A stretch of 64,000 nt of DNA from Escherichia coli. Lineage in GTDB: Bacteria; Pseudomonadota; Gammaproteobacteria; Enterobacterales; Enterobacteriaceae. The position numbers were made by a program, and so were the translations under genes. Position 1 is the first letter of the stretch. Every line of letters starts with the position of its first letter. The notes beneath the pieces were generated by a model. That model was not told the DNA's origin. It did not search any database and saw only the letters and a program-made list of their open reading frames with translations. Location of the stretch: NCBI RefSeq assembly GCF_001677475.2, contig NZ_CP015229.1; one strand, written 5' to 3'. Below, piece by piece: positions 39,983 to 61,192 of the stretch.

Positions 39983-41278
<1,296 letters not shown>

Positions 41279-41424
41279 AACTATCAGCCGGGTCATTATC
41301 GCCTGGCTGATTTTTAGCTCACTGTAAATTATCTCATTTATTACATACATTAGCTTACAATCGCTTTAAATATGACAGCATAACCTTTACACAATTTAGT
41401 TCCAGAAAACAATCATTCGGAAAA

Positions 41425-42900
41425 ATGATTCGGTCAACACGTGTTTCCCTAGGGTTATTCTTTAAATATTTTTTATCGTTAACGAAAATTGATCCTGGTC
41501 AAAACTATATATCTCTGCCATCAATAAAATCCAGCACTCACATTGCTCTCCTTTTTATGGTTTCTATGGGTACACAAAAATTAAAAGCTCAAGGCTTTTT
41601 TATTTTCAGTTTATTGCTGACGTTAATTTTATTTTGCATTACTACCTTATATAACGAAAACACGAATGTAAAACTCATCCCACAGATGAATTACCTGATG
41701 GTTGTTGTGGCTTTGTTTTTCCTTAACGCCGTCATTTTTCTTTTCATGTTAATGAAATATTTCACTAACAAACAAATTTTACCAACACTCATTTTAAGCC
41801 TTGCATTTTTAAGTGGCCTTATCTATTTAGTTGAAACCATTGTAATTATCCATAAACCAATCAACGGCAGTACACTGATCCAGACAAAGTCGAATGATGT
41901 TTCTATTTTCTATATTTTCCGCCAACTCAGTTTTATTTGTTTAACCTCGCTGGCGCTCTTTTGTTATGGAAAAGACAACATCTTTGAAAACAATAAGAAA
42001 AAAACTGGCATTCTGTTACTGGCGCTGATTCCTTTTTTAGTTTTTCCCCTTCTGGCACACAATCTGAGCAGTTATAACGCTGACTATTCTTTGTATGTCG
42101 TCGATTACTGTCCGGACAACCATACTGCGACCTGGGGAATCAACTATACAAAAATATTGGTTTGTTTGTGGGCATTTTTACTGTTCTTTATTATCATGCG
42201 TACACGATTAGCCAGCGAACTATGGCCGTTAATAGCATTATTATGTCTGGCATCGCTATGCTGCAACTTACTTCTACTGACTCTGGATGAGTATAATTAC
42301 ACCATCTGGTATATCAGTCGTGGGATTGAAGTTTCCAGTAAACTGTTTGTTGTGTCTTTTCTGATTTATAACATTTTTCAGGAACTGCAACTCTCCAGCA
42401 AACTGGCAGTTCATGATGTGCTGACCAATATTTATAATCGGCGCTACTTTTTCAACAGCGTAGAGTCATTATTGTCGCGACCTGTTGTTAAGGACTTCTG
42501 TGTCATGCTGGTTGATATTAATCAGTTCAAACGCATCAATGCCCAATGGGGACATCGTGTGGGTGATAAAGTGCTGGTTTCAATTGTCGATATTATCCAG
42601 CAAAGCATCCGCCCCGATGATATTTTAGCGCGACTGGAGGGTGAGGTGTTTGGCTTGCTGTTTACCGAACTCAATAGTGCCCAGGCAAAAATCATTGCAG
42701 AACGTATGCGTAAAAATGTCGAACTCCTGACCGGCTTTAGTAACAGATATGATGTTCCTGAACAAATGACCATCAGTATTGGCACGGTTTTTTCAACGGG
42801 TGACACGCGTAATATCTCGCTTGTCATGACGGAAGCAGATAAAGCCTTACGCGAAGCGAAAAGCGAGGGGGGCAACAAAGTGATTATTCATCATATTTAA
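41425..42900 (+). CDS. dgcJ: membrane-anchored diguanylate cyclase (GGDEF-type, GGEVF in active-site position)
   Basis: ORF track 491 aa; very AT-rich N-terminal membrane domain, C-terminal GGDEF-like domain; K-12 yeaI. Confidence 0.8.
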   Translation: MIRSTRVSLGLFFKYFLSLTKIDPGQNYISLPSIKSSTHIALLFMVSMGTQKLKAQGFFIFSLLLTLILFCITTLYNENTNVKLIPQMNYLMVVVALFFLNAVIFLFMLMKYFTNKQILPTLILSLAFLSGLIYLVETIVIIHKPINGSTLIQTKSNDVSIFYIFRQLSFICLTSLALFCYGKDNIFENNKKKTGILLLALIPFLVFPLLAHNLSSYNADYSLYVVDYCPDNHTATWGINYTKILVCLWAFLLFFIIMRTRLASELWPLIALLCLASLCCNLLLLTLDEYNYTIWYISRGIEVSSKLFVVSFLIYNIFQELQLSSKLAVHDVLTNIYNRRYFFNSVESLLSRPVVKDFCVMLVDINQFKRINAQWGHRVGDKVLVSIVDIIQQSIRPDDILARLEGEVFGLLFTELNSAQAKIIAERMRKNVELLTGFSNRYDVPEQMTISIGTVFSTGDTRNISLVMTEADKALREAKSEGGNKVIIHHI

Positions 42901-43080
42901 GTGCAAAAATATTCAGAGCCATGCTTTTTGCGTGGCTTTTGCATACAATTTATTACTATTACCCCTAAATTTCCCCTCCCCAGCGGCGCAGAGATGAGTA
43001 TAATTAGCGCCCCTGTGCCAGGCCGCAATCGAACTTTATCTGGTTTTCTCGTTTCACTAACCGAAGGAGTGCCATTTATC

Positions 43081-44571
43081 ATGAAATTGCACCATAGAAT
43101 GCTCCGGCATTTTATCGCCGCAAGTGTCATTGTGCTGACATCTTCCTTCCTTATTTTTGAACTTGTCGCCAGCGACAGAGCAATGAGTGCTTATCTGCGC
43201 TATATCGTGCAGAGAGCAGACTCCTCCTTTCTTTATGATAAGTATCAGAATCAGAGTATTGCCGCGCATGTGATGCGCGCTCTCGCTGCTGAGCAGTCGG
43301 AAGTGTCGCCAGAACAGCGGCGCGCCATCTGCGAGGCTTTTGAGTCTGCCAATAATACCCATGGCTTAAACCTGACTGCCCATAAATACCCGGGCTTACG
43401 CGGCACACTACAAACCGCATCCACTGACTGCGACACAATTGTGGAAGCTGCAGCACTATTACCCGCTTTTGATCAGGCAGTGGAAGGCAACCGCCACCAG
43501 GATGATTACGGTTCAGGTCTTGGGATGGCCGAAGAGAAATTTCACTATTATCTCGATCTCAATGACCGCTATGTCTATTTTTATGAGCCGGTTAATGTTG
43601 AATACTTTGCGATGAATAACTGGTCCTTCCTGCAGTCAGGAAGTATTGGCATCGATCGCAAAGATATTGAAAAGGTATTTACCGGGCGTACCGTATTATC
43701 GAGCATTTACCAGGATCAGCGTACTAAACAGAACGTGATGAGTTTGCTGACGCCGGTATATGTCGCAGGGCAGCTAAAAGGGATTGTGCTGCTGGATATT
43801 AACAAAAACAATTTGCGGAATATCTTTTACACTCATGACCGCCCTCTCCTCTGGCGTTTTCTCAATGTCACGCTAACTGATACCGATTCGGGGCGCGACA
43901 TTATCATCAACCAGAGCGAAGATAATCTGTTCCAGTATGTCAGTTACGTCCATGACTTACCGGGCGGCATTCGTGTCTCGTTATCCATTGATATTCTTTA
44001 CTTTATCACGTCTTCGTGGAAAAGCGTTCTGTTCTGGATTTTGACGGCGTTAATTTTGCTGAATATGGTCCGGATGCACTTCCGTTTATACCAAAATGTG
44101 TCGCGAGAAAATATTAGTGATGCGATGACTGGACTGTATAATCGCAAAATTTTAACCCCTGAACTGGAACAGCGGTTGCAGAAACTGGTGCAATCCGGTT
44201 CTTCGGTGATGTTTATTGCTATTGACATGGACAAGTTAAAGCAAATAAATGACACCCTCGGTCATCAGGAGGGGGATTTAGCGATTACGTTATTAGCTCA
44301 GGCGATTAAACAGTCGATTCGTAAAAGTGATTATGCCATCCGACTCGGTGGCGATGAATTCTGCATCATCCTTGTCGATTCGACGCCGCAAATTGCAGCA
44401 CAACTGCCTGAACGTATCGAAAAACGTCTGCAACATATCGCGCCGCAGAAAGAGATCGGCTTCTCTTCCGGTATTTACGCGATGAAAGAAAACGATACGT
44501 TACATGATGCGTATAAAGCTTCCGATGAGCGTTTATATGTCAATAAGCAGAACAAAAACAGCCGTTCATGA
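43081..44571 (+). CDS. dgcK: diguanylate cyclase with N-terminal sensor domain (GGDEF)
   Basis: Internal ATG at 43081 (MKLHHRMLRHF...) within ORF 42901-44571; RLGGDEF motif; K-12 yeaJ. Confidence 0.8.
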   Translation: MKLHHRMLRHFIAASVIVLTSSFLIFELVASDRAMSAYLRYIVQRADSSFLYDKYQNQSIAAHVMRALAAEQSEVSPEQRRAICEAFESANNTHGLNLTAHKYPGLRGTLQTASTDCDTIVEAAALLPAFDQAVEGNRHQDDYGSGLGMAEEKFHYYLDLNDRYVYFYEPVNVEYFAMNNWSFLQSGSIGIDRKDIEKVFTGRTVLSSIYQDQRTKQNVMSLLTPVYVAGQLKGIVLLDINKNNLRNIFYTHDRPLLWRFLNVTLTDTDSGRDIIINQSEDNLFQYVSYVHDLPGGIRVSLSIDILYFITSSWKSVLFWILTALILLNMVRMHFRLYQNVSRENISDAMTGLYNRKILTPELEQRLQKLVQSGSSVMFIAIDMDKLKQINDTLGHQEGDLAITLLAQAIKQSIRKSDYAIRLGGDEFCIILVDSTPQIAAQLPERIEKRLQHIAPQKEIGFSSGIYAMKENDTLHDAYKASDERLYVNKQNKNSRS

Positions 44572-44613
44572 TAACCTTCTGTGATTGTTTGCTTGTAATC
44601 TCAGGAGCATGAA

Positions 44614-45117
44614 ATGACTGAAATGGCTAAAGGAAGCGTGACGCATCAGCGGTTAATCGCTTTATTATCACAAGAAGGTGCTGACTTCCGCGTCGTTACC
44701 CATGAAGCGGTAGGTAAATGTGAAGCGGTGTCAGAAATTCGTGGCACCGCTCTAGGCCAGGGTGCTAAGGCACTGGTATGTAAAGTCAAAGGCAATGGCG
44801 TAAATCAACATGTTCTGGCGATCCTCGCTGCCGATCAACAGGCCGATCTGAGCCAACTCGCCAGCCATATAGGCGGATTACGCGCTTCGTTGGCCAGCCC
44901 GGCGGAAGTCGATGAACTCACAGGCTGTGTCTTCGGCGCGATCCCCCCTTTCAGCTTCCATCCAAAACTCAAACTGGTTGCCGACCCCCTACTCTTCGAA
45001 CGATTTGATGAAATCGCCTTCAATGCAGGCATGCTGGATAAATCCGTTATTTTGAAAACCGCGGATTATTTGCGTATTGCGCAACCAGAACTGGTCAATT
45101 TCCGCCGCACTGCGTAA
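44614..45117 (+). CDS. yeaK: YbaK/ProX-family mischarged aminoacyl-tRNA deacylase
   Basis: ORF track 167 aa. Confidence 0.85.
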   Translation: MTEMAKGSVTHQRLIALLSQEGADFRVVTHEAVGKCEAVSEIRGTALGQGAKALVCKVKGNGVNQHVLAILAADQQADLSQLASHIGGLRASLASPAEVDELTGCVFGAIPPFSFHPKLKLVADPLLFERFDEIAFNAGMLDKSVILKTADYLRIAQPELVNFRRTA

Positions 45118-45222
45118 CTAGCCTGTCCGTTCAATAAGCAGAACGGACAAAACCAGCACAACAGCAATGGCAAAAAACGATGACGTGATAATCAGTGTCT
45201 CGACGAACATTTGATCGTTCAT
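45118..45222 (-). CDS. yoaI: small membrane protein, 34 aa
   Basis: Reverse complement reads ATGAACGATCAAATGTTCGTCGAG... ([34 protein letters not shown]); recognised as K-12 small protein YoaI; not listed in the ORF track because it is under 60 aa. Confidence 0.6.
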
Positions 45223-45391
45223 AGCATGCCCCCGGGAGATAGCTGTTTTCACGTTATTGTTAGCGTGCACAAATGGCAGTTTGATGACAGTTCGCCTGAT
45301 TTTTTATGCAAAAAACGTAAAGATTTTCTACTTCCTTCCTGCAGCAAGCGTAAAGTAAGCAGGCTTATTATTTTTTGGCAAGGAAACCACG

Positions 45392-45838
45392 ATGTTTGAT
45401 GTCACTTTGCTGATCCTGCTCGGGTTAGCTGCGCTGGGCTTTATCAGTCATAACACCACTGTCGCCGTTTCAATTCTGGTGTTGATAATTGTCCGCGTCA
45501 CACCGTTAAGCACCTTTTTCCCGTGGATTGAAAAACAGGGGCTAAGTATCGGGATAATCATTCTGACGATTGGCGTTATGGCCCCCATCGCCAGCGGGAC
45601 GCTACCGCCCTCAACCCTGATTCACTCGTTTCTGAACTGGAAATCACTGGTGGCAATTGCAGTAGGCGTTATTGTCTCCTGGCTGGGTGGACGCGGCGTG
45701 ACGTTAATGGGCAGCCAGCCGCAACTGGTTGCTGGGCTGCTGGTGGGCACTGTTTTAGGCGTAGCGCTGTTTCGCGGCGTACCGGTTGGCCCGCTTATTG
45801 CCGCGGGTCTGGTTTCGCTGATTGTGGGGAAACAGTAG
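45392..45838 (+). CDS. yeaL: UPF0756 family inner membrane protein
   Basis: ORF track 148 aa, hydrophobic. Confidence 0.8.
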
Positions 45839-46616
45839 TTAATCCCGCAATATATCGGCCTGGCGTTTGCCCCAGGCCTTTCTTAAACATAGTAATAAAG
45901 GCCGTTGTTGAATCATACCCCAGCGTATGAGCAACTTTCTGTACAGTATCGCCTTTCACTAATCCCTGAAGCGCCATAATCAGCTGTAACTGCTGACGCC
46001 ACTGGCGAAAACTCAACCCCGTCTCTTTTACTATCAGTCGGGCAAGATTGCGTTCACTCATCGCAAAAAAGCCAGCCCATTGCCCCAATGACCCCCACTC
46101 GACGGGCCCTTTCGCCATCATCTCCACCATCGTGCGGATTTTAGGATGAGAAGAAACGGGCAGGTGCAGCTGTTGTTGTGGCTGCTGAGGGAGTTCATCA
46201 AACAGGACCTGAATTAATCTGCGGGTCATCGGCTCAGCACGCTGAGTCGTCGTCCTGTTTGCCAGGGTTAAAATTAATTCCCGGCATAAGGGCGATATTT
46301 TCAATGTGCAACATGTTGTCGGCATTGTCACTGCGCTGGGTTCGATAAACAGAAAACAGAGTTCAGCGTTAGATGTCACTTGATTGCTATGTTCCACCCC
46401 GCCCGGTATCCAAACCGCATATTGCGGCGGCACCATCCACAAAGCATTTTCCACCGTACAGGTAATTGCACCATGTAGCGCCAGTATCAGCTGTCCTTTG
46501 CGGTGCTGATGTACAGGACTGGTTAACTCATCCGTTCCGGCGTGAATACAAAATGCGACCGCGGCTTCATGGTGTCGGTCGGGTTCATAGCCATTGAGAT
46601 TCAACCTGTGCATCAT
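45795..46616 (-). CDS. nimR: AraC-family transcriptional regulator (NimR)
   Basis: ORF track 273 aa; C-terminal AraC helix-turn-helix; overlaps yeaL 3-prime end; K-12 yeaM. Confidence 0.8.
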
Positions 46617-46712
46617 TTTGTCCGAACTTAGCGATAAGTTGTCATTTTAGCTTGATTCAACATAACAATAAAAACGGTAAGGTACAGCCTCGTTTGTAAC
46701 AATGAGAAGCAT

Positions 46713-47894
46713 ATGACCTGTTCAACTTCATTAAGCGGCAAAAACAGGATTGTCCTTATCGCTGGCATTCTGATGATTGCCACTACATTACGCGTCACCT
46801 TCACCGGCGCAGCACCGTTACTGGATACGATTCGTTCCGCTTACTCGCTGACGACTGCGCAAATCGGCTTATTGACCACCCTGCCATTATTGGCCTTTGC
46901 GCTAATCTCACCTTTGGCCGCCCCGGTGGCGCGACGTTTTGGTATGGAACGTAGCCTGTTTGCCGCGTTACTTTTGATCTGTGCAGGTATCGCAATTCGT
47001 TCTCTCCCTTCGCCTTACTTATTATTTGGCGGTACAGCGGTCATTGGCGGTGGGATTGCATTAGGCAATGTCTTACTGCCAGGATTAATTAAACGCGATT
47101 TCCCTCATTCCGTCGCCAGACTTACCGGCGCATATTCCCTGACAATGGGAGCTGCAGCGGCACTGGGATCGGCTATGGTCGTGCCGCTGGCTTTGAACGG
47201 TTTTGGCTGGCAAGGCTCGTTGCTCATGCTGATGTGTTTTCCTCTGCTGGCTCTTTTTTTATGGTTGCCACAGTGGCGAAGCCAACAACATGTAAATTTG
47301 AGTACTTCACGCGCCTTACATACTCGGGGTATCTGGCGTTCGCCGCTTGCCTGGCAGGTCACATTGTTTCTTGGGATCAACTCACTGATCTATTACGTGA
47401 TTATTGGCTGGCTTCCGGCGATCCTCATCAGTCACGGCTATAGCGAAGCACAGGCGGGTTCATTGCATGGTTTGCTGCAACTAGCCACAGCAGCTCCCGG
47501 TTTGCTGATCCCACTTTTCTTACATCATGTGAAAGATCAGCGTGGTATTGCAGCGTTCGTTGCCTTGATGTGCGCAGTGGGCGCGGTTGGGTTCTGCTTT
47601 ATGCCAGCGCACGCGATCACCTGGACTCTGCTTTTCGGTTTTGGTTCCGGCGCAACGATGATACTGGGGTTGACGTTCATTGGTCTTCGGGCAAGTTCTG
47701 CGCATCAGGCGGCGGCACTCTCGGGGATGGCACAATCCGTCGGGTATTTGCTGGCAGCCTGTGGGCCGCCGCTAATGGGTAAAATACACGATGCTAACGG
47801 TAACTGGTCTGTACCACTGATGGGTGTTGCCATACTTTCACTACTGATGGCGATTTTCGGACTTTGCGCCGGGAGAGACAAAGAAATTCGCTAG
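46713..47894 (+). CDS. nimT: MFS transporter (NimT)
   Basis: ORF track 393 aa, 12-TM-like; divergent from nimR; K-12 yeaN. Confidence 0.8.
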   Translation: MTCSTSLSGKNRIVLIAGILMIATTLRVTFTGAAPLLDTIRSAYSLTTAQIGLLTTLPLLAFALISPLAAPVARRFGMERSLFAALLLICAGIAIRSLPSPYLLFGGTAVIGGGIALGNVLLPGLIKRDFPHSVARLTGAYSLTMGAAAALGSAMVVPLALNGFGWQGSLLMLMCFPLLALFLWLPQWRSQQHVNLSTSRALHTRGIWRSPLAWQVTLFLGINSLIYYVIIGWLPAILISHGYSEAQAGSLHGLLQLATAAPGLLIPLFLHHVKDQRGIAAFVALMCAVGAVGFCFMPAHAITWTLLFGFGSGATMILGLTFIGLRASSAHQAAALSGMAQSVGYLLAACGPPLMGKIHDANGNWSVPLMGVAILSLLMAIFGLCAGRDKEIR

Positions 47895-47948
47895 TATCCG
47901 GTGCTATAGTGACGTGACAAATCATGCGTGAAAGGGAGAACAAACACG

Positions 47949-48296
47949 ATGAATATTCAGTGCAAACGCGTTTATGATCCGGCTGAACAGAGCGATGGTT
48001 ATCGCGTACTGGTCGACCGCCTCTGGCCGCGCGGTATCAAAAAAACCGATTTAGCCCTTGATGAGTGGGATAAAGAAATCACGCCGTCAACGGAACTGCG
48101 CAAAGCCTTTCACGGCGAAGTCGTCGATTTTGCAACCTTTCGCGAGCAATATCTTGCAGAACTGGCGCAACACGAGCAAGAAGGAAAGCGGCTGGCGGAC
48201 ATCGCCAAAAAACAGCCGCTGACCCTGCTCTACTCAGCAAAAAACACCACGCAGAACCATGCGCTGGTGCTGGCCGACTGGCTACGTAGCTTGTGA
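47949..48296 (+). CDS. yeaO: DUF488 protein
   Basis: ORF track 122 aa trimmed to ATG at 47949 (MNIQCKRVYDP...). Confidence 0.75.
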   Translation: MNIQCKRVYDPAEQSDGYRVLVDRLWPRGIKKTDLALDEWDKEITPSTELRKAFHGEVVDFATFREQYLAELAQHEQEGKRLADIAKKQPLTLLYSAKNTTQNHALVLADWLRSL

Positions 48297-48317
48297 TTTT
48301 AGTACAGCATCCGGCGG

Positions 48318-48572
48318 TTATTTTTCACCAGCCGGATGGTCCCTTCGCCACAATGCCCATTCATCAATCGTTTCACCGCCCGGTAATTTGCAATTGTTGC
48401 TGACCCCTTGCGCTGTCTGCACTGGAATGAGCGTCCCGCCCTTCTGCTGGCAATAGACCGACGCCGGATTAGCCATACCAATCTGCGGCGGTTTAGGTGC
48501 TTCTGGCTGAGAAGAGGTTGAACAACCAGCCAGAACCAGCAAGCAAGGCAGAACAAAACTGATAATTTTCAT
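48318..48572 (-). CDS. yoaF: DUF333 lipoprotein
   Basis: ORF track 84 aa with lipobox LAGC. Confidence 0.75.
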   Translation of the reverse strand: MKIISFVLPCLLVLAGCSTSSQPEAPKPPQIGMANPASVYCQQKGGTLIPVQTAQGVSNNCKLPGGETIDEWALWRRDHPAGEK

Positions 48573-48754
48573 TTATTGATCTCACATATTTATCTACGCT
48601 TAGAGTATCGCGGTATCGTTTTGTTTTGCAGCACTATTTTTATTACATTCACTCAAATCATATTACGCCTTGTTTCATCTTTGTTGATGATGTTTTATCA
48701 TGCCTGCAAAGATTAAATAATCAGCATTTACCCGCCGTATCCTGGAGTTGTTTC

Positions 48755-49764
48755 GTGTCAGATCAGATTATCGCCCGCGTCTCGCAATCCCTTGCCAAAG
48801 AACAGTCACTGGAAAGTCTGGTCCGACAGCTTCTGGAGATGCTGGAAATGGTCACTGATATGGAATCAACCTACCTGACCAAAGTGGATGTCGAAGCGCG
48901 CCTGCAGCATATTATGTTTGCCCGTAACAGCCAGAAAATGCACATCCCGGAGAATTTTACCGTCTCGTGGGATTACTCGTTATGCAAACGCGCCATTGAT
49001 GAAAACTGCTTTTTCAGCGATGAAGTCCCTGACCGTTGGGGCGACTGTATTGCGGCACGCAATCTTGGCATCACCACATTTCTGAGCACGCCAATTCACT
49101 TACCGGATGGATCATTCTATGGCACGCTTTGCGCCGCCAGTGGAGTGAACGCGCGGAACAGGTTTTACAGTTATTCGCCGGACTGATTGCACAATATATT
49201 CAAAAAGAGGCGCTGGTAGAACAGCTGCGCGAAGCCAATGCCGCGCTGATAGCGCAATCGTATACCGACTCGTTAACCGGGTTGCCGAATCGGCGGGCGA
49301 TTTTTGAAAATCTGACGACGCTGTTTTCCCTCGCCCGGCATCTTAACCATAAGATAATGATCGCGTTTATCGACCTGGATAACTTCAAATTAATCAACGA
49401 TCGTTTTGGTCATAATAGTGGCGATCTGTTTCTCATTCAGGTTGGCGAGCGCCTTAATACGCTCCAGCAAAATGGCGAAGTTATTGGTCGTCTCGGCGGT
49501 GATGAGTTTTTGGTTGTTTCACTAAACAACGAGAATGCGGATATTTCGTCGCTGCGAGAACGTATTCAACAGAAAATACGTGGAGAATATCACTTAGGTG
49601 ATGTTGATTTGTATTATCCCGGTGCCAGTCTTGGCATAGTAGAAGTCGATCCTGAAACAACCGATGCAGACAGTGCCCTGCATGCTGCCGATATCGCGAT
49701 GTATCAGGAGAAAAAACACAAACAGAAAACACCTTTTGTCGCGCATCCAGCGCTACATTCCTGA
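48755..49764 (+). pseudogene. dgcP: diguanylate cyclase dgcP (yeaP) interrupted by a frameshift between the N-terminal sensor region and the GGDEF domain
   Basis: N-terminal part (GTG 48755 ... stop 49186) and C-terminal part (open from about 49036 to stop 49764, RLGGDEF motif) are in different frames and overlap over 49036-49186. Confidence 0.7.
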
Positions 49765-49796
49765 GGCGTATTCACATCCTTTTGATTGGTGATAAC

Positions 49797-49895
49797 ATGC
49801 GAATCGGTATTATTTTTCCGGTTGTAATCTTCATTACAGCGGTCGTATTTTTAGCATGGTTTTTTATTGGCGGCTATGCTGCCCCGGGAGCATAA
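49797..49895 (+). CDS. yoaK: small membrane protein, 32 aa
   Basis: ATG at 49797, MRIGIIFPVVIFITAVVFLAWFFIGGYAAPGA, stop 49893-49895; recognised K-12 small protein. Confidence 0.6.
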   Translation: MRIGIIFPVVIFITAVVFLAWFFIGGYAAPGA

Positions 49896-49897
49896 AG

Positions 49898-49972
49898 ATG
49901 AAAAAAACAACGATTATTATGATGGGTGTGGCGATTATTGTCGTACTCGGCACTGAGTTGGGATGGTGGTAA
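49898..49972 (+). CDS. yoaJ: small membrane protein, 24 aa
   Basis: ATG at 49898, MKKTTIIMMGVAIIVVLGTELGWW, stop 49970-49972; recognised K-12 small protein. Confidence 0.6.
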   Translation: MKKTTIIMMGVAIIVVLGTELGWW

Positions 49973-49980
49973 CGTCACCT

Positions 49981-50018
49981 CTAAAAAATAGCAAAGGCTG
50001 CCTGTGTGCAGCCTTTGT
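49981..50018 (-). terminator. hairpin terminator between convergent yoaJ and yeaQ
   Basis: caaaggctgc/gcagcctttg stem; on the minus strand followed by a T-run (complement of ctaaaaaata). Confidence 0.6.
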
Positions 50019-50030
50019 GCAATTTACGCG

Positions 50031-50279
50031 TTAACTTTTAATCTTCCTGTAGATAAATAGCACGACAATCGCACCAATAACGGCAACCACGAAGCTGCCA
50101 AAATTGAAGCCATCGACTTTACCAAAGCCAAACAGCGTGCTGATCCATCCGCCGACTACAGCACCGACTATTCCCAGCAGGATAGTCATAAAGAATCCAC
50201 CACCATCTTTACCTGGCATGATCCACTTCGCCAGAATACCGGCAATAAGCCCAAAAATAATCCATGACAGAATGCCCAT
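50031..50279 (-). CDS. yeaQ: GlsB/YeaQ/YmgE-family small membrane protein
   Basis: ORF track 82 aa, Gly-rich hydrophobic. Confidence 0.8.
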   Translation of the reverse strand: MGILSWIIFGLIAGILAKWIMPGKDGGGFFMTILLGIVGAVVGGWISTLFGFGKVDGFNFGSFVVAVIGAIVVLFIYRKIKS

Positions 50280-50426
50280 TGTTTCCTCACTTATCTGTTT
50301 TGCATTAGCGGGTTAGTCGCTGATAAAAAGCATAGCACAACATCGGGAGGGCAAGATTTGTGACGAGCATCACGGAGGATTTTTTTTCGATGGCGCAGAA
50401 ATTGCGCCATCAACGATCAGTGATAA

Positions 50427-50609
50427 TTACCAACCACAAACATCATGTTCGTTTTCCGTGTCATAAGAACGCACGGTATTCACCAGATCTTTTATCACTT
50501 CAGCCGCCACTTCTGGCACCAGCAAAGTCATCGGCGTCTCTGTTTCATAATCGACAGAAACGCCATTGCTGTTATTGGTGACGGTCACGGTATACGTTGC
50601 TTTGCCCAT
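50427..50609 (-). CDS. yoaG: DUF1869 protein
   Basis: ORF track 60 aa; starts 4 bp after yeaR stop (yeaR-yoaG operon). Confidence 0.7.
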   Translation of the reverse strand: MGKATYTVTVTNNSNGVSVDYETETPMTLLVPEVAAEVIKDLVNTVRSYDTENEHDVCGW

Positions 50610-50612
50610 GAT

Positions 50613-50972
50613 TCATTTCCCGTTATGAATGACTTTCCGTTGTTGCGCGCCTTCCATCAGGACTTCAGGAGCAACGAAGAAGTCAATGTTGAAATAAGTA
50701 TCGTCAGTCATGGCTTCAATGTTGTGCCACTTTTCTGGAGGGAACACCGCAAACTGCCCCGCTTCGATAAGGATCACCTGATCAGGCTCTGCACTGTGTT
50801 CATCAGGGTAGCCGAGATATTTGACCGCCCCATGCATAACGGAAAGGCGTGGGTAAACTCCCGGGCGCGTTCCTTTATCAAGATGACGTTCGAATATTCC
50901 GGCAGGCGCAGTTTGTTTATTCCAGAAAGGCGTTGAGCGCGTATGAATATAATTCTGTGGGATTTGCAGCAT
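50613..50972 (-). CDS. yeaR: DUF1971 protein (nitrate/NO-inducible in K-12)
   Basis: ORF track 119 aa. Confidence 0.8.
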   Translation of the reverse strand: MLQIPQNYIHTRSTPFWNKQTAPAGIFERHLDKGTRPGVYPRLSVMHGAVKYLGYPDEHSAEPDQVILIEAGQFAVFPPEKWHNIEAMTDDTYFNIDFFVAPEVLMEGAQQRKVIHNGK

Positions 50973-51144
50973 CCTTTTCCCTCCTTCGGTGAATGCGCTG
51001 AAAACAGTTTATTCCAGCCGTTTCAGGGTACGCCTGATAATTTGCATTTTAAATACCATTTATTGGTTACTTTTTAGCACCATATCAGAGAAGAATCAGG
51101 GAGGATTACAGATGGGAAGCCCGCGACAACGCGGGCTGAAAGCA

Positions 51145-51852
<708 letters not shown>

Positions 51853-51909
51853 TTAGAAAGGAGAAAATCAGGTTTTAACCTGATATCAACCCGATAATTG
51901 AATCATTAA

Positions 51910-52833
51910 TCAGGCATGCTCCAGTGAAAAATTCGGGTAGTGCTCGGCAAAATACTGGCGTAAAAATTCTACCGTTATCCGCACTTTCGCTGACGTCGCC
52001 AGCCTTGAAACATAAACGGCCCAGACGTTCGCTGGCTGGTAATATTCCGGTAGCACTTGTACTAAATGACCACTGGCAATGTTTTCGCTAACATCCCACC
52101 AGGAGCGCAGAGCAATCCCCTGTCCATCGAGACACCACTGATGGACAATTTCTCCATGATTAGACGACAGTGGGCCGGTGACTTTAATCGCATGGTGGCC
52201 TTCTTTATTGCGTAATTGCCAGACACCAAAAGGATGATCGCGCTCTTTAATGACCAGGCACGGCAATGCGGAAAGATCGGTTAAATGTTTCGGCGCGCCA
52301 TGTTGCGCAATAAATTCCGGCGACGCGCAGAGAATGCGGTAATTGGTCGCCAGTTTGCGGGCGATTAAATTAGGGGCGATGTCATCGCCAATGCGAATAT
52401 CGAGATCGACACCTTCATTGACCAAATCGACCAACCGGTCTTCCACATCAAAACGTAATTCCAGTTGCGGATACGCCTTCGCCAGCGCTGATAACGCCGG
52501 AGCCACCACCTGTCGTCCAAAACCAAAGCTGCTGATAATACGCAGCATCCCCTGTGGCACCTGACGCACGTCAGAAAGTTCGTCCATCATCTGACCGACA
52601 TCCTGCAAAATCCGCTGCGCCCATTCATAAATCCGCTCTCCTTCTTCGGTAATGGTGACGCGGCGGGTGGTGCGGTGTAACAACACCACGTTTAGCGTTT
52701 GCTCCAGCAAGGCGATGCGCTTGCTGACGAACGCCGGTGAAACGCCCAGTTCTTCCGCCACGGCGGCAAAACCAGCCCGGCGAGCCACCAGCATAAAGAC
52801 GCGCAAATCGTTCAGCAGCGGTAAATTATTCAT
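51910..52833 (-). CDS. dmlR: LysR-family regulator of D-malate degradation
   Basis: ORF track 314 aa trimmed to ATG at 52831-52833 (MNNLPLLNDLRVFMLVARR...). Confidence 0.8.
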   Translation of the reverse strand: MNNLPLLNDLRVFMLVARRAGFAAVAEELGVSPAFVSKRIALLEQTLNVVLLHRTTRRVTITEEGERIYEWAQRILQDVGQMMDELSDVRQVPQGMLRIISSFGFGRQVVAPALSALAKAYPQLELRFDVEDRLVDLVNEGVDLDIRIGDDIAPNLIARKLATNYRILCASPEFIAQHGAPKHLTDLSALPCLVIKERDHPFGVWQLRNKEGHHAIKVTGPLSSNHGEIVHQWCLDGQGIALRSWWDVSENIASGHLVQVLPEYYQPANVWAVYVSRLATSAKVRITVEFLRQYFAEHYPNFSLEHA

Positions 52834-52935
52834 GATTCGTGTTTTATGTTTCACCAGTTACGGGGATTAATTCCTTTTCAGTCAATTATAGGATGGTGAT
52901 GTTGTCAATTTTGATGGTCAGGAAGTGAGAACCCA

Positions 52936-54021
52936 ATGATTAAAACGATGCGTATTGCTGCGATCCCGGGAGACGGGATTGGCAAAGAAGTCCTTCCTGA
53001 AGGGATTCGCGTGTTACAGGCTGCCGCTGAGCGCTGGGGCTTCGCCTTGAGTTTTGAGCAAATGGAGTGGGCGAGCTGCGAGTATTACAGCCATCACGGT
53101 AAAATGATGCCGGACGACTGGCATGAGCAACTTAGCCGTTTCGACGCCATCTATTTTGGTGCCGTCGGCTGGCCGGACACCGTTCCGGACCATATTTCGT
53201 TGTGGGGTTCGCTGCTGAAATTTCGTCGTGAATTCGACCAGTACGTCAACCTGCGCCCGGTTCGTCTCTTTCCTGGCGTTCCCTGCCCGCTGGCGGGAAA
53301 ACAGCCTGGCGACATCGATTTTTACGTGGTCAGGGAAAACACCGAAGGCGAATATTCCTCGCTCGGCGGTAGAGTGAATGAAGGTACAGAGCATGAAGTC
53401 GTCATTCAGGAATCGGTATTTACGCGTCGTGGTGTCGATCGCATTTTGCGTTATGCCTTCGAACTTGCGCAAAGCCGCCCACGTAAGACGCTTACTTCTG
53501 CCACTAAATCAAACGGTTTAGCCATCAGCATGCCGTACTGGGATGAGCGAGTGGAAGCAATGGCCGAGAATTACCCGGAGATCCGCTGGGACAAGCAGCA
53601 TATTGATATTCTCTGCGCGCGTTTTGTGATGCAGCCGGAACGCTTCGATGTGGTGGTGGCGTCCAATTTGTTTGGCGATATCCTTTCCGATCTTGGCCCG
53701 GCCTGCACCGGCACCATTGGCATTGCCCCATCCGCCAACCTGAATCCGGAACGCACTTTCCCGTCGCTCTTCGAGCCTGTCCACGGTTCCGCGCCGGATA
53801 TCTACGGGAAAAATATTGCTAACCCTATCGCCACAATTTGGGCCGGTGCAATGATGCTCGATTTTCTCGGCAATGGCGATGAGCGTTTCCAGCAAGCGCA
53901 TAACGGTATTCTGGCAGCGATTGAAGAAGTGATTGCTCACGGGCCGAAAACACCGGATATGAAAGGCAGTGCCACCACGCCACAGGTTGCCGACGCGATT
54001 TGCAAAATTATTTTGCGTTAA
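52936..54021 (+). CDS. dmlA: D-malate / 3-isopropylmalate dehydrogenase (decarboxylating)
   Basis: ORF track 361 aa; divergent from dmlR. Confidence 0.85.
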   Translation: MIKTMRIAAIPGDGIGKEVLPEGIRVLQAAAERWGFALSFEQMEWASCEYYSHHGKMMPDDWHEQLSRFDAIYFGAVGWPDTVPDHISLWGSLLKFRREFDQYVNLRPVRLFPGVPCPLAGKQPGDIDFYVVRENTEGEYSSLGGRVNEGTEHEVVIQESVFTRRGVDRILRYAFELAQSRPRKTLTSATKSNGLAISMPYWDERVEAMAENYPEIRWDKQHIDILCARFVMQPERFDVVVASNLFGDILSDLGPACTGTIGIAPSANLNPERTFPSLFEPVHGSAPDIYGKNIANPIATIWAGAMMLDFLGNGDERFQQAHNGILAAIEEVIAHGPKTPDMKGSATTPQVADAICKIILR

Positions 54022-54041
54022 GGTCAAACCAGTTTATTTGA

Positions 54042-54068
54042 ACCGCGTCACTGACGCGGTTTTTTTAT
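54042..54068 (+). terminator. intrinsic terminator downstream of dmlA
   Basis: accgcgtca-ctgacgcggt hairpin followed by ttttttt. Confidence 0.85.
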
Positions 54069-54271
54069 TCGTTCTTTGCAGTAAATAACCTGCGTCATTT
54101 CACCTTTTATTGTTTCCGTTTCGTGTTTTATGGCTTTCCGTATTCTTAATTGTTTAATTTATGTAACATGCAAATAATCAATTTGTTAATCACGACATAC
54201 AACTCATTACCCTGCAAATAATTACAACTGGCAAAAGCCAGAGACGGGCTTTTATGCCCAGGAGATGACTC

Positions 54272-55882
54272 ATGATGAGCAATGTTAAGAAAAAAGATGT
54301 GCCGCTGATAAGCATCAGCCTGGTGGCCATTCTTTTCATCGCAGCTGCATTAAGCCTTTTCCCACAACAATCGGCCGACGCGGCCAACGCAATATACACT
54401 TTTGTTACGCGTACGTTAGGTTCCGCCGTACAGGTATTGGTTTTGCTGGCAATGGGACTGGTGATTTATTTAGCCACCAGTAAATACGGCAATATTCGTC
54501 TTGGCGAAGGAAAACCGGAATACAGCACGCTCTCCTGGCTGTTTATGTTTATTTGTGCCGGTTTAGGTTCTTCTACGCTTTATTGGGGGGTTGCTGAATG
54601 GGCCTATTATTATCAAACGCCTGGATTAAATATCGCACCGCGTTCACAACAGGCACTCGAATTTAGCGTTCCCTACTCCTTCTTCCACTGGGGCATCAGC
54701 GCCTGGGCAACTTATACGCTGGCCTCATTAATCATGGCTTATCACTTTCATGTGCGGAAAAATAAAGGGCTGAGCCTTTCCGGCATTATTGCTGCTATTA
54801 CCGGCGTTCGCCCGCAAGGCCCGTGGGGGAAACTGGTCGATTTGATGTTCCTGATCGCCACTGTCGGCGCACTGACCATTTCCCTTGTTGTCACCGCAGC
54901 AACCTTTACCCGTGGGCTTTCCGCGCTGACCGGTTTACCCGATAACTTTACCGTACAGGCATTTGTGATCCTGCTTTCCGGCGGCATTTTTTGCCTAAGC
55001 TCGTGGATTGGTATCAACAACGGTTTGCAACGTCTAAGCAAAATGGTTGGCTGGGGCGCGTTCCTGCTGCCATTACTGGTGCTGATTGTCGGTCCAACCG
55101 AATTTATTACCAACAGCATCATCAATGCCATCGGCCTGACCACGCAAAACTTCCTGCAAATGAGCTTATTCACCGATCCGCTTGGCGATGGTTCATTTAC
55201 CCGCAACTGGACCGTTTTCTACTGGCTGTGGTGGATCTCATACACGCCTGGCGTAGCAATGTTTGTCACCCGCGTTTCCCGCGGTCGTAAGATTAAAGAA
55301 GTTATCTGGGGACTGATCCTCGGCAGCACCGTCGGTTGCTGGTTCTTCTTCGGCGTAATGGAAAGCTATGCCATTCACCAGTTTATCAATGGTGTAATCA
55401 ACGTCCCACAGGTGCTGGAAACACTGGGCGGCGAGACAGCTGTGCAGCAAGTTCTGATGTCGTTGCCAGCCGGTAAATTGTTCCTCGCCGCATACCTGGG
55501 CGTGATGATTATTTTCCTTGCCTCGCATATGGATGCGGTGGCCTACACCATGGCGGCAACCAGTACGCGTAATCTCCAGGAAGGTGACGATCCTGACCGT
55601 GGGCTGCGTCTTTTCTGGTGCGTGGTAATTACCCTGATCCCGCTTTCAATTCTTTTCACTGGCGCGTCGCTGGAAACGATGAAAACCACCGTCGTACTCA
55701 CAGCCCTTCCGTTCCTCGTCATTTTACTGGTGAAAGTCGGCGGATTTATTCGCTGGCTGAAACAGGATTACGCCGACATTCCGGCTCATCAAGTTGAACA
55801 TTATCTCCCGCAGACACCGGTTGAAGTCCTGGAAAAAACGCCAGTGCTCCCTGCGGGAACCGTATTCAAAGGCGACAACTGA
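54272..55882 (+). CDS. yeaV: BCCT-family transporter (betaine/carnitine/choline type)
   Basis: ORF track 536 aa; start may lie further downstream. Confidence 0.8.
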
Positions 55883-55913
55883 GCGCCATCATCCTAACGA
55901 TAAAGGTATCCCT

Positions 55914-57038
55914 ATGAGCAATCTGAGCCCTGACTTTGTACTACCCGAAAATTTTTGCGCTAACCCGCAAGAGGCGTGGACCATTCCTGCCCGTTTTTAT
56001 ACCGATCAGAACGCCTTTGAACACGAAAAAGAGAGCGTCTTCGCCAAAAGCTGGATTTGCGTCGCTCATAGCAGCGAACTGGCGAATGCCAATGATTATG
56101 TGACGCGTGAGATCATTGGCGAAAGCATCGTGCTGGTACGTGGTCGTGATAAGGTTTTGCGCGCGTTCTATAACGTTTGCCCGCACCGTGGTCATCAGTT
56201 ATTGAGCGGCGAAGGGAAAGCGAAAAATGTGATTACCTGCCCGTATCACGCCTGGGCATTCAAACTCGATGGTAACCTGGCCCATGCGCGTAACTGCGAA
56301 AACGTCGCCAATTTCGATAGCGACAAAGCGCAACTGGTTCCAGTACGTCTGGAAGAATATGCCGGATTCGTCTTCATCAACATGGACCCCAACGCCACCA
56401 GCGTAGAAGATCAGTTACCCGGTCTGGGCGCGAAAGTGCTGGAAGCCTGCCCGGAAGTCCACGATCTGAAACTGGCGGCCCGCTTTACCACCCGCACGCC
56501 TGCCAACTGGAAGAACATTGTCGATAACTATCTCGAGTGCTATCACTGTGGTCCGGCGCATCCAGGTTTCTCCGACTCCGTACAGGTTGATCGTTACTGG
56601 CACACCATGCACGGTAACTGGACGCTGCAATACGGTTTCGCCAAACCGTCAGAACAGTCTTTCAAATTCGAAGAGGGCACGGATGCGGCATTCCACGGTT
56701 TCTGGCTGTGGCCGTGCACGATGCTGAACGTCACCCCAATCAAAGGGATGATGACGGTCATTTATGAATTCCCGGTGGATTCTGAAACTACCCTGCAAAA
56801 CTACGATATTTACTTCACCAATGAAGAGTTAACCGACGAGCAAAAATCGCTGATTGAGTGGTATCGCGATGTGTTCCGTCCGGAAGATTTACGTCTGGTT
56901 GAAAGCGTACAGAAAGGGCTGAAATCGCGTGGCTATCGTGGTCAGGGGCGCATCATGGCCGACAGTAGCGGTAGCGGAATTTCCGAACATGGTATCGCCC
57001 ACTTCCATAATCTGCTGGCGCAGGTGTTTAAGGACTAA
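55914..57038 (+). CDS. yeaW: Rieske [2Fe-2S] oxygenase subunit (carnitine monooxygenase CntA-like)
   Basis: Internal ATG at 55914 (MSNLSPDFVLPENF...); Rieske motif CPHRG...CPYHAW. Confidence 0.85.
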   Translation: MSNLSPDFVLPENFCANPQEAWTIPARFYTDQNAFEHEKESVFAKSWICVAHSSELANANDYVTREIIGESIVLVRGRDKVLRAFYNVCPHRGHQLLSGEGKAKNVITCPYHAWAFKLDGNLAHARNCENVANFDSDKAQLVPVRLEEYAGFVFINMDPNATSVEDQLPGLGAKVLEACPEVHDLKLAARFTTRTPANWKNIVDNYLECYHCGPAHPGFSDSVQVDRYWHTMHGNWTLQYGFAKPSEQSFKFEEGTDAAFHGFWLWPCTMLNVTPIKGMMTVIYEFPVDSETTLQNYDIYFTNEELTDEQKSLIEWYRDVFRPEDLRLVESVQKGLKSRGYRGQGRIMADSSGSGISEHGIAHFHNLLAQVFKD

Positions 57039-57093
57039 TGACATCGGCGGCGGTATTTTCCGCCGCTGGGCTGATTTTTGATGGAGTACAGCA

Positions 57094-58059
57094 ATGTCAG
57101 ACTATCAAATGTTTGAAGTACAGGTGAGCCAGGTTGAACCGCTTACAGAACAGGTGAAACGCTTCACGCTGGTGGCAACCGATAGCAAACCATTACCTGC
57201 GTTTACTGGAGGAAGTCACGTCATTGTGCAGATGAGCGATGGTGATAACCAGTACAGCAATGCGTATTCACTACTGAGTTCGCCGCATGACACCTCTTGT
57301 TATCAGATTGCCGTTCGGCTGGAGGAAAACTCGCGCGGCGGTTCCCGCTTTTTGCATCAGCAGGTAAAAGTGGGCGATCGGTTAACGATTTCAACGCCTA
57401 ATAACCTGTTTGCGCTAATTCCCTCGGCCAGAAAGCATCTGTTTATCGCGGGCGGCATTGGTATCACCCCTTTCCTGTCGCACATGGCAGAGTTGCAACA
57501 CAGCGACGTCGACTGGCAGCTACATTACTGCACGCGAAATCCAGAAAGTTGCGCATTTCGTGATGAGCTAGTCCAACATCCGCAGACGGATAAAATCCAT
57601 TTTCATCACTCATCGACCGGAACGCGTCTTGAATTAGCGCGATTATTGGCGGATATCGAACCTGGCACACATGTTTATACCTGTGGCCCCGAGGCGCTAA
57701 ATGAAGCGGTAAGAAGTGAAGCTGCGCGTCTGGACATCGCCGCCGATACGATGCACTTTGAACAATTTGCGATTGAAGACAAAACCGGCGATGCATTTAC
57801 CCTGGTGCTTGCCCGTTCCGGTAAAGAGTTTGTGGTGCCGGAAGAGATGACTATTTTGCAGGTTATTGAAAATAATAAAGCAGCGAAAGTGGAATGTTTA
57901 TGTCGTGAAGGGGTATGCGGAACCTGCGAAACGGCAATACTGGAAGGTGAAGCTGACCATCGGGATCAGTATTTTAGCGATGAAGAGCGTGCCAGCCAGC
58001 AAAGTATGTTGATCTGTTGTTCGCGTGCGAAGGGTAAACGCCTGGTGTTGGATTTGTAG
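57094..58059 (+). CDS. yeaX: oxygenase reductase subunit (FNR-like plus plant-type 2Fe-2S ferredoxin domain, CntB-like)
   Basis: ORF track 321 aa; C-terminal CxxxxCxxC ferredoxin motif. Confidence 0.85.
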   Translation: MSDYQMFEVQVSQVEPLTEQVKRFTLVATDSKPLPAFTGGSHVIVQMSDGDNQYSNAYSLLSSPHDTSCYQIAVRLEENSRGGSRFLHQQVKVGDRLTISTPNNLFALIPSARKHLFIAGGIGITPFLSHMAELQHSDVDWQLHYCTRNPESCAFRDELVQHPQTDKIHFHHSSTGTRLELARLLADIEPGTHVYTCGPEALNEAVRSEAARLDIAADTMHFEQFAIEDKTGDAFTLVLARSGKEFVVPEEMTILQVIENNKAAKVECLCREGVCGTCETAILEGEADHRDQYFSDEERASQQSMLICCSRAKGKRLVLDL

Positions 58060-58063
58060 TTTG

Positions 58064-58105
58064 CCGAAGCCGGACTGAGCGCGCCCAGTCCGGCTTCGGA
58101 AGATT
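58064..58105 (+). terminator. strong hairpin between convergent yeaX and rnd
   Basis: 14-bp stem ccgaagccggactg/cagtccggcttcgg followed by aagatttta. Confidence 0.7.
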
Positions 58106-59233
58106 TTACTGCGGATATTCCTGCAATAAATTGTGTAATGCTTCCGCCATCAGCTCACCACGCCAGCCGGAAATCAGCTCCGGCAAATTGTTCTGCGGTT
58201 TCAGTTTCCAGTGCCAGTTCAGCAGTTGGTTGATTTGCCGACGCGATGCCAGCAATTCGGCGCTGATCTTGTGCGTTTCGCTCACGTCAGTAATCAGCGA
58301 CTTAATCGCTTTAAACGCTTTACGATAACCCGGCATGTCCATCAGGTTAAGCATCGGCTGCGGTAAGGCCTCTTCCGGCAATGTCTGCGCTTTTTCCACC
58401 AGCGCCAGCAGCGTTTTACCGTGAAAGCGGATTTCGCTACCGGATAAGCCCAGGCTGTCCAGTTCGCCTAAACTTCCCGGCATATAACGCGCTACCGACC
58501 ACAAATGCTCTTCACGCACGACAAAGTTCACCGCCAGATCGCGCTCCCGCGCCTTGCGCAGTCGCCAGTCGGCTAACAGTTGCAGACAGGCCAGTTGGCG
58601 TGTGCGTAACTGCCAGGCATTGGTGATATCACGCCAGGCATCTTCCGGTGCAACGACTTCCTGACGACGCATTTGCATCAGGCGGCATTCATCCAGCGCC
58701 GCAGGTAGCCAGCCGGAGGCCTCCGTTTCTACCATAAGCTTTGCGGTGATCGGTAACAGATACCAGACATCCGCCGCTGCGTATTCACACTGACGTTCGG
58801 TCAGCGGTCTGGCCAGCCAGTCGGTGCGCGATTCACTCTTGTCCAGCGTAACGCCGGAATACTCTTCCACCATGGAAGCGAAACCCCATGACATCGGGCG
58901 TCCGCAGAAGGCAGCAAGGATTTGCGTGTCAATCAGGGGTTGTGGTAATTCGCCAAAGACATTGAGGAACACTTCCAGATCTTCACTGCCTGCATGGAGA
59001 AATTTTGTGATGGACGGATCGCGCAGGATCGCTTTCAGCGGTGACCAGTCGGTGATCCCGAGTGGATCGATTAGCGCCAGATGCTCGCCATCGAAAAGTT
59101 GAATCAACCCCAGCTGCGGGTAATAAGTGCGCGTACGAACAAATTCAGTATCCAGGGCTATCGCCGGAAAGGCACGGACGGCTTCACACAAAGAAGCCAG
59201 CGCATCGTCCGTGGTAATCATTTGGTAATTCAA
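58106..59233 (-). CDS. rnd: ribonuclease D
   Basis: ORF track 375 aa MNYQMITTDDALASL... Confidence 0.9.
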   Translation of the reverse strand: MNYQMITTDDALASLCEAVRAFPAIALDTEFVRTRTYYPQLGLIQLFDGEHLALIDPLGITDWSPLKAILRDPSITKFLHAGSEDLEVFLNVFGELPQPLIDTQILAAFCGRPMSWGFASMVEEYSGVTLDKSESRTDWLARPLTERQCEYAAADVWYLLPITAKLMVETEASGWLPAALDECRLMQMRRQEVVAPEDAWRDITNAWQLRTRQLACLQLLADWRLRKARERDLAVNFVVREEHLWSVARYMPGSLGELDSLGLSGSEIRFHGKTLLALVEKAQTLPEEALPQPMLNLMDMPGYRKAFKAIKSLITDVSETHKISAELLASRRQINQLLNWHWKLKPQNNLPELISGWRGELMAEALHNLLQEYPQ

Positions 59234-61180: not shown

Positions 61181-61192
61181 AAAAACAAGCAA

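Follow-up and report, generated by a model that had tools for sequence, protein, structure and literature searches.

The 8.34-kb interval from position 41,425 to position 49,764 of the window, a 64,000-nucleotide stretch of an Escherichia coli genome (contig NZ_CP015229.1), is best read as a conserved core segment carrying three anciently diverged, independent GGDEF genes, one of which, dgcP, has been broken by a recent clonal deletion. We assign this reading a probability of about 92%. The arrangement itself belongs to the E. coli core and was described long ago; it is already known and ordinary. The original prediction had portrayed the interval as a cluster of three diguanylate cyclase genes, with one member inactivated by a frameshift. 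Three GGDEF genes do lie within 8.34 kb at matching coordinates, and the frameshift in dgcP was confirmed as a single 16-bp gap relative to intact genes. However, the first of the three products, CdgI, has a degenerate EGEVF motif in place of a cyclase signature.

Gene content and layout of the locus

Three ORFs matched the Pfam GGDEF model (PF00990; gathering cutoff, 23.8 bits), with scores of 152.7 bits for cdgI, 137.9 bits for dgcJ, and 144.7 bits for the C-terminal frame of dgcP (Table 1). Gene names were taken from the RefSeq annotation of collinear genomes, in which the order across the interval is yeaI-yeaJ-yeaK-yoaI-yeaL-nimR-nimT-yeaO-yoaF-yeaP. The genes had been predicted to be dgcJ, dgcK, and dgcP. 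Only the last of these names was right, as RefSeq and the DgcJ equivalog model identify the three as cdgI, dgcJ, and dgcP. The collinear genomes have no annotated dgcK, and the label probably derives from yeaK, which encodes a tRNA_edit deacylase. The small membrane protein genes said to be interspersed among the cyclase genes are present (yoaI and yeaL, along with the lipoprotein gene yoaF), but yeaK, nimR, nimT, and yeaO also lie between them.

Table 1. Features of the GGDEF gene interval and its downstream flank
Feature	Position	Strand	Description	State
cdgI (yeaI)	41425..42900	+	491 aa; MASE4 and degenerate GGDEF	ORF intact
dgcJ (yeaJ)	43081..44571	+	496 aa; GAPES1 periplasmic sensor and canonical GGDEF	Intact
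yeaK	44614..45117	+	Mischarged aminoacyl-tRNA deacylase (Pfam tRNA_edit, 3.3e-27, and annotation); no GGDEF	Intact
yoaI	45118..45222	-	34-aa small membrane protein (annotation)	Intact, same as the PCN033 copy
yeaL	45392..45838	+	DUF441 membrane protein (Pfam DUF441, 2.7e-44)	
nimR	45795..46616	-	AraC-type regulator (annotation)	Intact
nimT	46713..47894	+	MFS 2-nitroimidazole transporter (annotation and MFS_1)	Intact
yeaO	47949..48296	+	DUF488 protein (Pfam)	
yoaF	48318..48572	-	DUF333 lipoprotein (Pfam DUF333)	
dgcP (yeaP)	48755..49764	+	GTG start; 1010 bp here versus 1026 bp when intact	Pseudogene
Truncated DgcP product	48755..49186	+	143 aa: 129 native residues (partial GAF), then 14 out-of-frame residues	
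dgcP deletion junction	49129..49146	+	CGCCAGCAGTGAGAAG (dgcP nt ~381-396) lost between two CGCCAG direct repeats	
Orphaned dgcP frame	49129..49764	+	GAF-GGDEF linker and complete GGDEF (Pfam GGDEF, 2.7e-42)	
yoaK	49797-49895	+	Small membrane protein, directly downstream of dgcP	Intact
yoaJ	49898-49972	+	Small membrane protein, directly downstream of dgcP	Intact

Across positions 39995-52833, dgcP was the sole gene that was not intact, and no insertion sequence elements or gene decay beyond dgcP were found in the window. Rfam models detected no structured RNAs or small RNAs inside the interval, the sole matches in the window being sroD (59259-59344) and ES036 (3418-3460). A promoter-like site was located at 49771-49798; in the promoter and terminator scan, counts did not exceed those for shuffled sequence.

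At most two potential cyclases are encoded

The cdgI product combines an N-terminal MASE4 domain (1.6e-48) with a GGDEF domain (9.2e-45), and its translation reads RPDD-ILARL-EGEVF. The A-site thus departs from the GG[D/E]EF signature of active diguanylate cyclases, while the RxxD I-site (RPDD), five residues upstream, is intact. These features, together with the RefSeq name in place, assign the protein to the MASE4-GGDEF family. It is not DgcJ, scoring 66 bits on the DgcJ equivalog NF040885 against a cutoff of 500. The same degenerate EGEVF is listed for YeaI of K-12 and CFT073 (motif table of PMC3484386). In PMC5635695, CdgI is described as catalytically degenerate, c-di-GMP binding, and noncatalytic, as undetectable and not expressed under laboratory conditions, and as repressed by CsrA. 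Given the degenerate A-site and this literature, no more than two cyclases are encoded here, and CdgI would be a membrane-bound MASE4 c-di-GMP binder or regulator instead.

The neighboring ORF passed the NCBIfam DgcJ equivalog model NF040885 with 747 bits (model positions 1-492 of 493; cutoff, 500) and encodes a protein identical to DgcJ of PCN033. It carries GAPES1 (7e-151) and GGDEF (3.4e-40) domains, a canonical RLGGDEF A-site, and an RKSD I-site, consistent with a membrane cyclase that is probably active and has GAPES1 as its periplasmic sensor. Published work on orthologues (PMC3484386, PMC8669469, and PMC11327459) is the sole source for the diguanylate cyclase activity of products of this locus.

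A 16-bp deletion separates the two domains of DgcP

Apart from the gap, dgcP shares ~99% DNA identity with two annotated dgcP genes in the same position. Alignment with these two intact genes revealed the 16-bp gap and no further indel. The deletion took out one of two 6-bp direct repeats together with the 10-bp spacer between them, leaving a single CGCCAG at 49135-49140 and a junction at about 49134/49135; replication slippage or microhomology-mediated deletion probably produced it. Codon 129 is the last in the original frame, and the shifted frame runs into a TGA stop codon at 49184-49186.

Intact dgcP orthologues contain both a GAF and a GGDEF domain, and the full-length protein is expected to act as a cytoplasmic GAF-GGDEF cyclase. 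In the copy analyzed here, which is a pseudogene, no continuous ORF joins a start codon, a sensor/dimerization domain, and a GGDEF domain. The frameshift would yield a 143-aa GAF fragment and leave the GGDEF domain untranslatable. The fragment gave no Pfam or NCBIfam match. Judged from the sequence, the strain has most likely lost DgcP activity while keeping DgcJ and CdgI. DgcP is vegetatively expressed according to PMC5635695, and deletion of yeaP in CFT073 lowers biofilm formation, a defect complemented by a heterologous cyclase (PMC3484386).

A stop codon alone is no proof of a null dgcP, as some activity reportedly remains in Shigella cyclase genes that are interrupted by a premature stop before the GGDEF domain (PMC11327459). 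In Shigella flexneri, such cyclase "pseudogenes" contribute to c-di-GMP (PMC11327459). By analogy, translation could restart within the GGDEF frame of the split dgcP, for example at TTG 49129, so that a sensorless linker-GGDEF protein makes c-di-GMP without GAF control and the enzyme is rewired, not removed. This frame stays open across 49036-49764, and gene callers begin it at the same TTG, predicting a 211-aa product. Its GGDEF domain is complete with a canonical RLGGDEF A-site, and the RxxD I-site is absent. Additional disabling mutations were not found in dgcP: the only change is one Q-to-K replacement, and the ungapped region shows 0 mismatches to an otherwise near-identical strain with an intact gene (L003). 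However, this lack of further decay is explained equally well by a very recent deletion. There is no in-frame ATG or GTG upstream of the GGDEF domain, and none of the in-frame starts, including the TTG candidates, has a suitably spaced Shine-Dalgarno-like sequence. As the upstream ORF ends 57 nt past TTG 49129, normal translational coupling does not apply. Moreover, catalysis requires a dimer, and the GGDEF domains of active E. coli cyclases as a rule fail to homodimerize in isolation (PMC5635695). We therefore consider a working split dgcP improbable. Noncanonical, low-level initiation at TTG 49129 or nearby, which would generate a constitutive sensorless cyclase, likewise has only a slim chance of being correct; in that reading, the 143-aa GAF fragment could survive as a ligand binder in its own right.

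The dgcP deletion is rare and recent

Neither the 5,426 complete E. coli genomes nor, in an exact-match search, the GTDB species representatives contained a 46-nt sequence spanning the junction. In contrast to the complete genomes, drafts and metagenomes do contain the allele: NCBI, Logan, and ENA samples include at least 17 draft or metagenomic contigs that encode exactly this truncated product, and inspection of four loci (L004, L008, L009, and L010) confirmed the junction. The window DNA is at most about 98.6 to 98.9% identical to complete E. coli genomes, with none above 99% in RefSeq. This low identity raised the possibility of a Shigella source, which was rejected because the window is free of IS elements and of pseudogenes besides dgcP and because identical proteins bear E. 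coli names.

In the assembly L003 (GCA_019135775.1), dgcP is intact, and the 16 bp are the only difference across 21.4 kb. This near-identity could suggest that the organism has an intact gene and that the frameshift arose in sequencing or assembly. However, loss of 16 bp between direct repeats is untypical of read-level errors, and the same junction occurs in independent data, namely, two Logan runs, an NCBI assembly, and an ENA metagenome contig. Together with the recurrence of the truncated product on the contigs noted above, this leaves an error with a negligible probability. As a strain identical over 21.4 kb retains the intact gene, the lesion is both recent and clonal. It is a mutation restricted to one clone and not part of a locus-level mechanism. 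Other dgcP frameshift alleles break at different positions, and the deletion described here is one among many sporadic dgcP frameshifts in E. coli.

Conserved neighborhood, probably independent genes

Of the 5,426 complete E. coli genomes, 5,399 (99.5%) cover at least 80% of the locus query, and 5,408 do so for dgcP alone. The three proteins differ in their sensor domains (MASE4 in CdgI, GAPES1 in DgcJ, and GAF in DgcP), and their GGDEF domains are only 27 to 30% identical in pairwise comparisons. As no DNA repeats are shared between the three genes either, recent or tandem duplication was rejected as their origin. Mobile-element boundaries or repeats that could explain the clustering were likewise not found. 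When 19 genes were placed at random on 4.64 Mb, three GGDEF genes fell within 8.3 kb in ~0.9% of simulations. In this post hoc test, the clustering is nominally nonrandom (P about 0.009), which leaves room for selective linkage.

Such linkage could take the form of a c-di-GMP module kept by selection, in which, for example, CdgI heterodimerizes with the GGDEF domains of its neighbors and loss of DgcP alters the output of the whole locus. Clustering expected by chance in less than 1% of simulations and an arrangement retained in 99.5% of complete genomes are both compatible with this idea, as is two-hybrid evidence that the GGDEF domain of CdgI can pair with several others, for which the accessible part of PMC5635695 does not name the partners. 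However, a core region will be conserved within one species mainly through common descent, and unrelated genes on both strands separate the three. The nfrBA operon, which encodes the DgcJ partner NfrB, presumably maps to another part of the chromosome, which also speaks against a module. The divergence of the sensors and of the GGDEF domains also argues against a module, as does the unlike regulation of cdgI and dgcP described in PMC5635695. Furthermore, S. flexneri keeps dgcP, lacks cdgI, and has a truncated dgcJ (PMC11327459), which indicates that these genes are lost independently. Overall, a selected module appears very improbable, and we infer a lack of functional coupling among cdgI, dgcJ, and dgcP.

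The same divergence and the intervening unrelated genes speak against the functional "hotspot" that had been proposed for this interval, and the idea that inactivation of one member shifts local output finds no better footing. In E. coli, "local" c-di-GMP signaling refers to protein complexes, not to gene neighborhood. The expected effect of losing DgcP is therefore the removal of a single cytoplasmic cyclase input and not a shift in a locus-specific output. DgcJ signals to NfrB in such a local manner (PMC8669469), and the published regulation and outputs of these genes differ (PMC8669469 and PMC5635695).

Significance and comparison with known systems

The value of this analysis is mainly corrective: the genes are cdgI, dgcJ, and dgcP, only two of them encode potential cyclases, and the lesion in dgcP is genuine, uncommon, and of recent origin. 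As textbook E. coli c-di-GMP genetics, the locus has little wider importance. Nevertheless, the natural near-isogenic pair, identical over 21.4 kb with or without the 16 bp, could be used to gauge the contribution of DgcP, whose physiological role is poorly defined. If the orphaned GGDEF frame were expressed, it would provide an E. coli example beside the "pseudogenized" Shigella cyclases that retain activity.

The locus corresponds to yeaI-yeaJ...yeaP of K-12, whose genes are called cdgI, dgcJ, and dgcP under the systematic GGDEF/EAL nomenclature, in genes, order, orientation, and neighbors (PMC8669469, PMC3484386, and PMC5635695). Domain architectures and motifs also match, with EGEVF in CdgI and GGDEF in DgcJ and DgcP (motif table of PMC3484386). 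Unlike the K-12 locus, dgcP here carries the 16-bp frameshifting deletion, which is absent from the 5,426 complete genomes. Loss of single GGDEF genes at this locus by deletion or truncation is shared with S. flexneri, as is the question whether a GGDEF domain located after a premature stop keeps some activity (PMC11327459). The pattern is nevertheless the reverse of that in S. flexneri, where cdgI is absent, dgcJ is truncated, and dgcP is intact (PMC11327459), as cdgI and dgcJ are intact here and dgcP is broken. Other truncated E. coli dgcP alleles (a 90%-identity cluster with 512 members) similarly result from frameshift or nonsense mutations that leave a GAF-only fragment. In the alleles aligned, those truncations break at about aa 181 to 207, compared with aa 129 here, which makes the present fragment the shortest of those examined.

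Gene order and identities at the locus

The ORF listing and a megablast search, in which 41000–50200 was compared with 5,426 complete genomes of E. coli, show this part of the window to be collinear with a conserved chromosomal segment. Following the RefSeq annotation of the collinear genomes PCN033 and ATCC 8739, the order is yeaH, cdgI (yeaI), dgcJ (yeaJ), yeaK, yoaI, yeaL, nimR, nimT, yeaO, yoaF, dgcP (yeaP), yoaK, yoaJ, and yeaQ, the last of these on the minus strand. From yeaH to dmlR, every gene in the window besides dgcP is intact.

Positions of genes from cdgI to yoaJ (window numbering)
Gene	Position	Strand	Description
cdgI	41425–42900	+	MASE4 + GGDEF domains
dgcJ	43081–44571	+	GAPES1 + GGDEF domains
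yeaK	44614–45117	+	tRNA-editing-domain deacylase
yoaI	45118–45222	−	
yeaL	45392–45838	+	
nimR	45795–46616	−	
nimT	46713–47894	+	
yeaO	47949–48296	+	
yoaF	48318–48572	−	
dgcP	48755–49764	+	frameshifted
yoaK	49797–49895	+	
yoaJ	49898–49972	+	

The original prediction placed three diguanylate cyclase genes, dgcJ, dgcK, and a frameshifted dgcP, within 8.4 kb. Three GGDEF-domain ORFs are indeed present across 41425–49764 (Pfam PF00990, 1e-40 to 1e-45), and both the co-location and the dgcP frameshift were confirmed, but two of the names and the number of cyclases were wrong. The first gene combines MASE4 with GGDEF, is annotated as cdgI, and at 66 bits falls below the 500-bit cutoff of the NCBIfam equivalog for DgcJ; the second scored 747 bits and is dgcJ. 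No gene is annotated as dgcK in PCN033 or ATCC 8739, and yeaK was ruled out as a GGDEF gene by annotation and Pfam. The description of the intervening genes as encoding small membrane proteins applies to yoaI, yeaL, and yoaF but not to yeaK, nimR, nimT, and yeaO.

In L005, a related locus on an ENA metagenome scaffold, yeaK (13190-13603) was called at 137 aa versus 167 aa and the downstream spacing was off by 19 bp, which suggests a separate yeaK indel in that sample. Elsewhere in the window, Rfam matches above the gathering score were obtained for the sRNAs sroD (115 bits; 59259-59344, minus strand) and, barely, ES036 (38.9 bits; 3418-3460, plus strand).

Active sites and catalytic capacity

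Motifs were read from the translations. CdgI (…IRPDDILARLEGEVFGLL…) has a degenerate active site (A-site), EGEVF, with an RxxD I-site at the canonical distance. Both sites are intact in DgcJ (…IRKSDYAIRLGGDEF…), while the DgcP GGDEF frame (…NGEVIGRLGGDEF…) has an intact A-site and no I-site. Judged by these motifs, the locus encodes at most two cyclases rather than the three proposed, and only one of the two is intact in this strain. The CdgI motifs are those of K-12/CFT073 YeaI (PMC3484386) and agree with the account by Sarenko et al. of CdgI as a c-di-GMP-binding protein with a degenerate GGDEF domain, toxic on overproduction and undetectable in laboratory conditions (PMC5635695). Around 41300-42200, the 5′ half of cdgI, which encodes MASE4, has a G+C content of 0.33-0.35, compared with ~0.50 in neighboring genes; the codon bias of membrane proteins could account for this, as could an ancient horizontal acquisition of the MASE4-GGDEF family.

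A 16-bp deletion in dgcP

Alignment with two intact dgcP genes revealed a single 16-bp gap at otherwise ~99% identity. The sequence here is GCGC-CGCCAG-CAGTGAGAAG-CGCCAG-TGG in intact genes and GCGC-CGCCAG-TGG in the window allele. A 6-bp direct repeat has thus been reduced to a single copy and the intervening 10 bp are gone, a signature of slipped-strand or microhomology-mediated deletion, by which the allele probably arose. Relative to the intact protein, the frame shifts after Ser129 and continues for 14 foreign residues to a TGA at 49184–49186. As intact DgcP comprises a GAF-like region (~residues 5–169) and a GGDEF domain (~172–334), the 143-aa truncated product is a partial GAF domain; it matched no Pfam or NCBIfam model.

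The GGDEF domain lies in a frame open from 49036; ahead of the domain, the only canonical in-frame starts (ATG/GTG/TTG) are TTG 49036 and TTG 49129. Neither TTG is preceded by a Shine-Dalgarno sequence, the upstream ORF terminates 57 nt past TTG 49129, and the GGDEF domains of active E. coli cyclases seldom dimerize when isolated, although catalysis requires dimers (PMC5635695). The allele is thus most likely null, with the caveat that residual activity has been reported for Shigella cyclase genes interrupted by premature stops (PMC11327459). The strain is expected to lack one cytoplasmic cyclase input as a result. Downstream of the dgcP stop codon and ahead of yoaK, 49771-49798 resembles a promoter (TTCACA-16-TAACAT, the -10 being TG-extended), so yoaK and yoaJ may be independent of dgcP transcription and may escape polarity of the premature stop.

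Frequency and age of the allele

The window is entirely collinear with E. coli and contains no IS elements in its 64 kb. Its best identity to any of the 5,426 complete RefSeq E. coli genomes was 97.8% (1-25000), 98.6% (41000-50200), and 98.5% (50000-64000), whereas draft assemblies and Logan runs matched at ≥99.9%, so the source lineage has no representative among complete genomes. A 46-nt junction probe, for which intact alleles offer no seed by design, had no matches in the complete E. coli genomes or in GTDB species representatives. The junction was found in four loci that were examined, among them L004, which matches the window at 99.99% identity across 21.5 kb, and 17 contigs from NCBI, Logan, and ENA data encode a product identical to the 143-aa fragment. 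Locus L003 (GCA_019135775.1) has no mismatches over 21.4 kb and an intact dgcP; its 17331-18356 corresponds to window 48755-49764, and the only difference over the stretch is the 16 bp in dgcP. L003 and the window form a natural near-isogenic pair. Together, these matches indicate that the deletion is genuine, recent, and limited to a small clone.

dgcP was present at ≥80% query coverage in 5,408 of the complete genomes. The 90%-identity protein cluster containing the 143-aa fragment has 512 members, including other frameshift alleles broken at ~aa 181, 186, 190, 196, and 207 (P0002-P0015), and one 181-aa form occurs on 133 contigs. Sporadic inactivation thus strikes dgcP repeatedly in E. coli. 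The window allele is a minor strain-level variant.

Significance of the clustering

When 19 GGDEF genes were placed at random on 4.64 Mb, the size of the K-12 chromosome, three fell within 8.3 kb in ~0.9% of placements. The gene count was taken from published work (PMC5635695). By this post hoc test, the clustering is nominally nonrandom. Recent duplication as its origin was ruled out, as the GGDEF domains share just 27–30% pairwise identity, the N-terminal sensor domains (Pfam) differ among all three genes, and no DNA repeats are shared between them.

The proposed signaling hotspot is unsupported past simple co-location. Unrelated genes on both strands separate the three genes, and the nfrBA operon is located elsewhere on the chromosome. 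In published work, the three also differ in how they are regulated and in what they control. Phage N4 infection depends on DgcJ, whose specific target is the glycosyltransferase NfrB (PMC8669469). CdgI is CsrA repressed and undetectable, while DgcP is expressed vegetatively and is fairly abundant (PMC5635695). Deletion of yeaP in CFT073 reduced biofilm in glycerol medium, and a heterologous cyclase rescued this phenotype (PMC3484386). The arrangement is conserved in 5,399 of 5,426 complete E. coli genomes; this reflects the core region of one species and is no evidence for a module. Both the locus and the genes it carries have been described before. In S. flexneri, cdgI is missing, dgcJ is truncated, and dgcP is kept (PMC11327459), and the three genes are thus lost independently of one another.
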